This document shows positions 5,701 to 8,700 of a stretch of DNA of 64,000 nt, in pieces (position 1 is the first letter of the stretch; every line of letters begins with the position of its first letter). The position numbers and the translations under genes are program-made. The notes beneath the pieces are model-generated. The model ran no database searches. It was given only the letters and a program-made list of their open reading frames with translations, and was not told where the DNA came from. This stretch comes from Octopus vulgaris (taxonomy: Eukaryota): positions 13,640,001-13,704,000 of the forward strand of contig OX597836.1 of NCBI GenBank assembly GCA_951406725.2, in the 5' to 3' direction.

Positions 5701-8700
5701 AAACGCAGGTTGCAAAGAAGGGACGGCCACATTTCATCTACTCATGTAAGGAATCTCACCATCAGAAGAAGGCTGTGGAGACCAATGATGAAGACCTTCG
5801 AAATACACATATCAAAAGTAAGACATCGTTGTTAAATTGCTTTTGTGTCATTTTCAAATGTATTTGTGCTACCCAACATTTTTCTACTCCCACCTCTCTC
5901 TTTTACTCTTTTACTCTTTTACTCTTTTACTCTTTTACTTGTTTCAGTCATTTGACTGCGACCATGCTGGAGCACCGCTTTTAGTCGAGCAAATCGACCC
6001 CGGGACTTATTCTTTGTAAGCCCAGTACTTATTTTATCGGTCTCTTTTGCCGAACCGCTAAGTAAGCACATCAGCATCGGTTGTCAAGCAATGCTAGGGG
6101 GACAAACACATACACACACACTTATATATACATACATATATACGACAGGCTTCTTTCAGTTTCCGTCTACCAAATCCACTCACAAGGCATTGGTCGGCCC
6201 GGGGCTATAGCAGAAGACACTTGCCCAAGATGCCACGCAGTGGGACTGAACCCGGAACCATGTGGTTGGTTAGCAAGCTACTTACCACACAGCCACTCCT
6301 GCGCCTCTGTATTACTTAACTGTGATAAATTGTAATACTTGATTTGTTTGTTTTACCTGATCCTCTGAAAGTGCATGGCTCAATGGTTAGAGCGTTGGGT
6401 TCACAATCGTGAGGTAGTGAGTTCGATTCCCGGACCGGGCTGCATGTTGTTTTCTTGAACAAAACACTTTATTTCACGTTGCTCCAGTTCACTCAGGTGA
6501 GTTTACGTCCCCGTAACATAGCGGTTCGGCAAAAGGGGCGATAGAATAAGGACCAGGTTCAAAAATAAGTACTGGGGTCGATTCATTCGACTAAAAATTC
6601 AAGGCAGTGCCCCAGCATGACCGCAATGAAGCAGATAAAAGTGAAGAAATGAAATGACGAGTTTCATTTCTTTACTTCTCTGAAGAGAAGATTACATTGT
6701 TTTACACCAATTTATTCCTTTGGAATAATATCAGTGATATCTTCGAAACATGTGTCGGAAGTAAAAGAACTTGAATTACACCTGCGCTTAAACCCCATTT
6801 ATATGTATAATATATATATATATATATATATATATATATATATATATATATATATATATATATATATATACATATATATACACATATATACTCACACTTA
6901 TGCATGTACATATATATATACATATATTGATAGATAGATAGATACATGCATATATATATAGATAGATAGATAGATAGATAGATACATATACATACATATT
7001 TACATATATACTTATATACTTATACATATAAATATATATATATGTGTGTGTGTGTATAATATTGTATGCGTGTACTTTCAGTGTCTGCCTCCCTCAAAAG
7101 AAAATAATTTTTCACTTTCCTTTCTTTTTATTTCTTCTTCAATATTATGTTTCCGTATTTTATTCTCTTTTGTTTTAACCCCATACAGGAAGTAGGCACT
7201 ATAAGATGAAAACCCAGAGACAGCACCATCTACGGCAACATCGTGTACGAAGGGACATACCCGTTAACTATTACCTCGAAGTTTTGTTGGCTACCGATAA
7301 CACTTTGGTAAAGTTCCACGGTAAGAGCCACCTGGAGCAGTACTTGTTGGGAATTATAAACATCGTAAGTCTCCATTGAATACTACTGATGCTATTAACG
7401 TGGTTATATTTATTGTCGTTGCTGTTTTTGTTGTTCATGATTGTGGTTCGTTATTATCGTAGTCATTGCCGTTATCATTATCATCATTATCGCCGCCAAC
7501 GTTGTCATCATCGTTCTCTTAGTTGCGGATTAAATGTCGATAGTATTTAGATCATGGTCGTTTCACGTTGTCAACGGAAATCCAGAGATTCAGATGAATA
7601 TCCGCTCCCTTCCCAGCGTCATCTATCCGTTCGGAGATCGTGATTGATCTTTTGAGTTTCGTTATACCTTTGATATACCTTTCCAATGTCTGTCACTGAA
7701 GAATACATTGTATGCGAGAGGTTTTGCCAGGCTTCACCAACAATAGAATAAAGCGCGAATTATGAGGGATGATTCCTTAAAGAATTATGAGGATGATTCC
7801 TTAAAGAATTATGAGGGATGATTCCTTAAAGAATTATGAGGGATGATTCCTTAAAGAATTATGAGGATGATTCCTTAAAGAATTATGAGGGATGATTCCT
7901 TAAAGAATTATGAGGGATGATTCCTTAAAGAATTATGAGGATGATTCCTTAAAGAATTATGAGGATGATTCCTTAAAGAATTATGAGGGATGTTTCCTTA
8001 AAGAATTATGAGGATGATTCCTTAAAGAATTATGAGGATGATTCCTTAAAGAATTATGAGGGATGTTTCCTTAAAGAATTATGAGGGATGATTCCTTAAA
8101 GAATTATGAGGATGTTTCCTTAAAGAATTATGAGGGATGATTCCTTAAAGAATTATGAGGATGATTCCTTAAAGAATTATGAGGATGATTCCTTAAAGAA
8201 TTATGAGGATGATTCCTTAAAGAATTATGAGGATGATTCCTTAAATCTGAGTTCCTAGTGTCATGTGTTTTCTTCTTGACTCTCTTCTAGAAATTGTTCT
8301 CATTTATTTCACAACATGTGTGTGTGTGTACACACTAAAAGGTATCGAGTGATTCTTCAGTTTAATGGTAAATTGTTTAATATATATTGTGTCTGGAGAG
8401 AGTCATTTTCTTTTTGTGCCTTATAATGTAACACACTCACCAGTAAAATTTCCACTTATTTCTTATTTTTATTTTCCTAAAATTTTCGTTGCGTCTTGCA
8501 ACCTTTTCAATAATCTTGACTCTGTCCGTTGACATTGAAAAGGTTGCAAGACGTAACGAAAATTTTAGGAAAATAAAAATAAGAAATAAGTGGAAATTTT
8601 ACCGGTGAGTGTGTTACATTATAAGGCACAAAAAAGAAACTGACTCTCCCCAGACACAATAGAATATGCTTCAACACACGAACTCAATATAAAGAATCTT

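Follow-up and report, generated by a model that had tools for sequence, protein, structure and literature searches.

Type I hammerhead ribozymes have already been published for the Hydra clade of Penelope-like retroelements, including one from octopus (Hydra-1_Obim; PMC8557442). There, the clade is characterized by a DKT motif, a CxxC/E/N/CxH arrangement, the absence of CCHH, an RWK motif, and a CxCX5C linker, a zinc finger that has been linked to (TA)n targeting. A short stem III is usual for metazoan type I hammerheads, which use a dimer: in such a double hammerhead, the strand with CUGANGA and GAAA is the catalyst and cleaves at the GUC of its partner, and when minimal Penelope hammerheads were assayed, single units did not cut and dimers cut weakly (PMC4209133). 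Slow cutting in vitro has been described for some monomeric type I hammerheads with a short stem III (PMC7229834). Two alternative 3' ends have been interpreted as the "tail" signature of internal initiation of reverse transcription (PMC11167929), and a preprint reports that retrozymes are depleted from introns (10.64898/2026.07.22.740005). An octopus repeat annotation describes active Penelope-like families, with ribozymes unmentioned in the portion of the text available, and its repeat library may hold the family described here (PMC13282606). In the literature on Penelope, cephalopod, and Hydra-clade hammerheads, we found no paper on this family.

The sequence analyzed here (the window) comprises 64,000 nucleotides of Octopus vulgaris contig OX597836.1, and a hammerhead had been predicted in it within an intron of an ADAMTS-like gene. 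With a probability of roughly 90%, we conclude that a high-copy Hydra-clade Penelope-like element left a 146-nt copy, truncated at its 5' end, in sense orientation in this intron, that the motif is the hammerhead from the terminal repeat of this copy, and that it is likely an inert passenger. Family membership, element anatomy, and a spliced host junction were all observed. The original prediction of a structurally intact sense hammerhead in need of a partner held up, but the identity of the motif as a retroelement fragment had been missed. Since the motif belongs to a high-copy retroelement, its presence is explained without a role in the host. The features of the insertion are as follows.

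6671 to 6765, + strand: type I hammerhead (core CUGAAGA at 6680-6686 and GAAA at 6745-6748; stem III at 6748-6755).
6655 to 6800, + strand: terminal-repeat fragment, truncated at the 5' end, of a Hydra-clade Penelope-like element, 92 to 96% identical to dispersed copies.
6639 to 6654, − strand: 16 nt from the 5' arm of the element's stem I in inverted orientation (inverted repeat, 94%).
6801 to 6870, + strand: AT-rich end and (TA)n run at the element 3' end, the likely target site, with (TA)n in related copies.

The core was found at the positions expected, completed by GTC at 6754-6756; U16.1 corresponds to 6755 and C17 to 6756, and the predicted cut lies 3' of C6756. Stem I consists of 9 bp (6671-6679/6757-6765) and stem II of 6 bp (6687-6692/6739-6744), with an extended loop 2 of 46 nt; the further pairing claimed for stem II was confirmed as an extra 5-bp helix. 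Core and stems I and II are thus intact, on the pre-mRNA strand, as had been proposed. CUGANGA, GAAA, UH, and an open end at stem I, as expected for type I, were all present, and the corresponding descriptor matched once in the window with both strands scanned and never in 200 block-wise dinucleotide shuffles. In a local scan, Rfam Hammerhead_1 (RF00163) matched 6674-6762 with 22.2 bits (E 0.0027), a score that the long loop 2 keeps under the gathering score of 34. Among 150 of the 297 matches of a whole-window Rfam scan there were microsatellite-driven miRNA matches and no hammerhead.

Two details of the predicted structure needed revision. The 9-bp stem I is present in the window copy, but it is an accident of this one copy, since the family has 6 bp followed by a C.A mismatch (73 of 81 copies) that C6673T converts into a pair. 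A second substitution, C6679T, turned the closing C-G pair, found in 65/81 copies, into U.G. The sequence ACATGTGT, described as a self-complementary stem III, does pair with itself over 8 bp, but only with the help of two G.U wobbles. In the monomer, stem III is reduced to 2 bp with a 4-nt loop (probability ∼0.02), and the need for a dimer or a partner in trans was therefore correctly foreseen. Among 16 copies, stems I and II were kept by compensatory change, with 97.3% of cells paired; a C-G to U-A exchange at 6678/6758 occurred in 5 of these (26 of 81 in the larger set) and represents one inherited event, and the other changes affecting both sides of a stem were confined to single sequences. 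Loop 3 reads ATGT in 61/81 copies and the perfect palindrome ATAT in 17/81, an alternation that fits pairing in a dimer. Pairing conservation and loop 3 lend modest support to hammerhead function in the element, and none to function in the host.

A search with 6655-6800 yielded 2144 first-look candidates, 40 of which were scored and were 92 to 96% identical, and the dispersed copies all began to match at about 6655. Genome-wide (2.8 Gb searched), a 20-mer covering the core and the start of stem II had 396 exact copies (193 forward, 203 reverse; control, 0), which is a lower bound on the number of copies. Compared to the majority sequence of 53 close copies, the window copy showed 7 differences over 146 nt; it is only ∼5% diverged and hence young. 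By the same test, the hammerhead was intact in 29 of 32 close copies and in 12 of 21 copies picked by their nuclease region, so that intactness of the window copy needs no selection. Longer copies continued ∼1 kb upstream into a frame containing IYQC..YIGS..CLLCNSE..N..CKH and then into a reverse transcriptase (RT) frame. In 20 loci, picked by the 5' end of the open reading frame (ORF) from 40 scored and counted by hand, the hammerhead was located downstream of the ORF in 18 and on both sides of it, about 2.85 kb apart, in 10; an inverted piece was found at the 5' side in 17, and the 778-amino-acid (aa) frame was open in 3. These loci represent a sister subfamily, with a hammerhead region 77 to 83% identical to that of the window, and for the subfamily of the window copy, the link to the ORF comes from locus L027 (92% identity over 171 nt). 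Partial-tandem terminal repeats with a hammerhead, an inverted 5' copy, and two 3' ends agree with the anatomy of endonuclease-containing (EN+) Penelope-like elements.

This anatomy also bears on the reading of the motif as one monomer unit in a tandem non-LTR retrozyme of the small circular RNA type. Such retrozymes likewise carry type I hammerheads with a short palindromic stem III (PMC7229834), but in 30 loci every second hammerhead match was on the opposite strand, short direct repeats were absent, and direct hammerhead pairs stood about 2.85 kb apart and flanked an ORF. Short head-to-tail repeats without an ORF were not seen in these loci, and we rejected the retrozyme reading as the least probable of all those considered.

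Core variants were often found in the subfamily with intact 778-aa ORFs: U4C (CCGAAGA) in 20/81 copies, a GUA cut site in 12/81, and G10.1.U11.1 in 13/81 (examples are L072:2460-2599, L090:2246-2386, L083:4105-4245, and related copies). The strict hammerhead test was passed by 5 of 27 copies of this subfamily. These sequences suggest that the youngest lineage tolerates a weakened ribozyme. One nearly full-length copy has a 417-aa C2H2 zinc-finger frame (L061:1788-3040, + strand) about 1 kb away.

The 3' ends were surveyed in 57 loci, 3 of 60 having been dropped as repeats of other loci. In 51 copies, 26 ends were short, 20 were long, and 5 were of other types; the window copy stops at the first of the two preferred ends and is followed by (TA)n. 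(TA)4+ was present at 31 of the 51 ends versus a background of about 10%, as expected for a clade that inserts at (TA)n, with the caveat that alignment ends are drawn into such runs by the microsatellite at the end of the probe itself. The 16 nt directly upstream of the window copy (6639-6654) are reverse-complementary to the 5' arm of the family's stem I, and we infer that they are a remnant of an inverted piece or of a template switch. This arm is predicted to form a 17-bp hairpin with 6660-6677 (−18.9 kcal/mol; z −6.6). The combination of inverted arm and copy gave one match genome-wide. Judging from known Penelope biology, the element nuclease would have nicked an AT-rich or (TA)n site, reverse transcription would have used the first of the two sites for internal initiation (the "...AAACTCCA" end), and it would have halted after about 146 nt, leaving the 16-nt inverted scrap. 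In the parent RNA, two hammerheads would pair via the near-palindromic stem III and act as a double hammerhead, perhaps with help from the element protein.

The 778-aa ORF encodes DKT (SDKTG), YRDD, a C-terminal IY..C/YIG, and CLLCNSE..N..CKH, that is, CxxC, E, N, and CxH. Among 3260 candidates, 351 relatives were found at E ≤ 0.001, many of which carry PF26215. A model built from the alignment reached a pLDDT of 78.7, compared to only 34 for the single-sequence fold, and the top 3 solved structures matching it were telomerase RTs (E 5e-9 to 9e-9). A telomerase-like RT in a single ORF is consistent with an EN+ Penelope-like element; the C-terminal GIY-YIG endonuclease is evident from its motif in the alignment and from Atlas neighbors with PF01541 (26 to 50% of members). 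Pfam returned no family for the protein or its pieces, a profile sequence search with the protein matched no solved structure, and a homologue search with a decayed fragment, restricted to longer proteins, found none. DKT and the CxxC/CxH pairs around E and N agree with the Hydra clade, as does the lack of CCHH, judged by eye. In the alignment, the RWK motif column reads RWL in this family, and the CxCX5C linker, present in 15 aligned homologues, was absent from every translated family copy (L090:2571-4904, − strand, linker residues about 635-660 of P0002; also L079-L098 and L027-L046). Because of RWL and the missing linker, we filed the family as a divergent Hydra-type Penelope-like one, a placement by motifs with references compared by eye. 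It lacks the linker yet has (TA)n at most of its surveyed ends, implying either that the linker is dispensable or that the AT-rich ends give rise to the runs. Elsewhere in the window, 13735-14253 (− strand) contains a decayed fragment of another Hydra-type element with linker and nuclease (profile probability 92.8%; E 4e-7). The short frame at 40628-40819 (+ strand), without a Pfam match, resembles a Penelope-type GIY-YIG C terminus, and the frames at 34549-34836, 29804-29953, and 38726-38923 (all + strand) resemble fragments of mariner transposases, in each case by their motifs.

The host features surrounding the insertion are the following.

5645 to 5817, + strand: host exon on the 5' side of the intron, with an ADAMTS-like prodomain (in X7 and X10, contigs cover 5645-5818 and resume at 7189).
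5818 to 7188, + strand: host intron of 1,371 nt, GT-AG (GT at 5818-5819), with an in-frame junction, from contig junctions.
7189 to 7364, + strand: host exon with an RVRR furin-type site, from translation and contigs.

Of 13 pieces scanned with Pfam, + strand exons matched the ADAMTS TSP1 domain PF19030 (E 9.5e-10 and 6.3e-8), a reprolysin propeptide match remained below the cut-off (E 0.0012), and the remaining pieces gave nothing informative. With the furin-site exon beginning at 7189, the hammerhead indeed lies ∼420 nt upstream of it, as had been stated. Contigs of 3.6 to 3.8 kb in 4/4 RNA-like sets, whose run type is a guess, covered 7189-7364 and extended upstream into the exon ending at 5817; the 5817/7189 junction was thus seen in 4/4 sets from loose contig ends, and by record coordinates the two exons abut in X7 and X10. 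The intron is therefore spliced out in at least part of the transcripts, although such contigs are evidence of mature message and say nothing against cut transcripts, and contigs cannot show RNA ends. Contigs over the hammerhead in these runs differ from the window copy by several letters and are not assignable to it, and their summed depths are neither copy numbers nor expression. Much of the intron is filled by very high-copy SINE-like repeats (5920-6310 and 6380-6636).

Host regulation has been proposed for ultraconserved intronic hammerheads of amniotes. That the host likewise co-opted this hammerhead for cis regulation of the ADAMTS pre-mRNA would suit its sense orientation, its short distance from the acceptor, and its intact core. 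We nevertheless regard this reading as highly improbable, as the copy is barely diverged from the family majority and intact copies are common enough for its intactness to need no selection; moreover, its 2-bp stem III, the change of the closing pair to U.G, and the inverted arm all speak against it.

In the folding model, the catalytic monomer fold made up ∼1% of the ensemble, even when the inverted arm was left out. Opening the core in a −60/+130 context cost 9.1 kcal/mol in the window copy, the second of 41 copies, compared to a median of 5.0 for the 40 others (13 copies were skipped for gaps or broken stems); in wider context, the cost was 9.0 versus a median of 7.6. The 16-nt inverted scrap is predicted to trap the stem I 5' arm. 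The stem I probability in context was ≤0.5 in 48 of 50 other copies too, and we rejected the argument that a probability of 0 proves silencing, since these control copies are mostly low as well. Because of these copies, and because the cost in wider context is near the median, the upstream hairpin is, according to the model, an added but not decisive block to cutting. A family-wide small hairpin, in which CUUCAC pairs with UGAAG of the core, is also predicted to compete with the catalytic fold (e.g., L002 and L007) and might be an off state of the element RNA. Alone in this intron, the window copy, whose stem III has 2 bp, whose closing pair is U.G, and whose 5' arm faces an upstream hairpin, is predicted not to cut before the short intron is removed.

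A 3'-half paralog had been reported at 22752-22782 and proved real, with an exact 18-mer (0.01 expected by chance) and an extension to about 22834.

22753 to 22834, + strand: second, shorter, more diverged family fragment (hammerhead 3' half and tail, then (TA)n) in a different intron.

This fragment sits 16 kb downstream of the hammerhead, and its stem I is mismatched at the second pair; CUGANGA was absent from it and from the 300 nt upstream. We rejected it as a catalytic partner, as it lacks CUGANGA and lies in another intron; without CUGANGA it could serve at best as a substrate strand and could not catalyze cleavage at 6756. Any partner for that cut must be another transcript.

One such reading holds that expression of the family leads to trans cleavage of the relic in vivo, 3' of C6756 in the pre-mRNA, with a family transcript as the catalytic strand and perhaps the element protein as chaperone. 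The intact core, the double hammerhead modeled as ∼9 kcal/mol better than two monomers, the hundreds of family copies that could supply partners, and a 3' substrate strand (6748-6765) that the upstream hairpin would leave free all point in this direction. So do reports that the hammerhead of an anole Penelope-type element needed protein in vitro (PMC11167929) and that a fast engineered intronic hammerhead lowered mRNA up to 20-fold (PMC11856399). However, a slow, bimolecular reaction stands against an intron of just 1.37 kb, no read ends were found at the hammerhead site of the anole element (PMC11167929), splicing proceeded despite slow cleavage by an intronic hammerhead (work of others cited by PMC2995048), and the spliced junction 5817/7189 is present in contigs. 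On balance, we consider trans cutting very unlikely. Slightly less credible still is its general form, in which sense intronic relics would be conditional cut sites: upon transcription of the parent element, its RNA, with the element protein as chaperone, would pair via the palindromic stem III and cleave host pre-mRNAs, this ADAMTS transcript included, in trans.

Taken as a passenger of the retroelement, the insertion is ordinary: the motif is real and of a known kind. As found, it carries little weight, being one of hundreds of scraps from a clade already described with hammerheads. If conditional cut sites did exist, they would couple transposon activity to host gene output, and the inverted scrap would free the substrate strand; trans cutting of host pre-mRNAs would matter for the question of what Penelope hammerheads do in vivo (PMC8557442, PMC11167929). 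With its intact ORFs, natural core variants, and lack of a linker zinc finger, the family could be used to test the need for the hammerhead and (TA)n targeting.

The closest described system is Hydra-1_Obim from Octopus bimaculoides (Craig et al. 2021), with which the family shares a unit of about 2.9 kb and a single ORF encoding RT and then GIY-YIG. Its hammerhead differs from the Hydra-1_Obim row, and it represents another family. Like the Hydra clade in general, it has DKT, CxxC/E/N/CxH, no CCHH seen, inverted 5' pieces, and (TA)n ends, as well as, close to the 3' end, a canonical type I hammerhead whose palindromic stem III reads AC..GT; unlike that clade, it has RWL for RWK and lacks the CxCX5C linker, and its loop 2 is 46 nt long, compared to 3 to 10 nt in the supplementary table's Hydra rows (PMC8557442). 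The metazoan Penelope-like terminal-repeat hammerheads of Cervera and de la Pena (2014) are also of type I with a large stem II and G10.1-C11.1, have a short palindromic stem III thought to be dimer dependent, and occur mostly as single dispersed motifs in truncated elements. In contrast to those described there, the window copy has no extra nucleotide between A9 and G10.1, and its stem III has 2 bp, against none there (PMC4209133). Animal non-LTR retrozymes resemble it in their type I hammerhead with a short stem III that is more active as a dimer (PMC7229834), whereas the window family is not arranged in short tandem repeats and is tied to an autonomous RT element.
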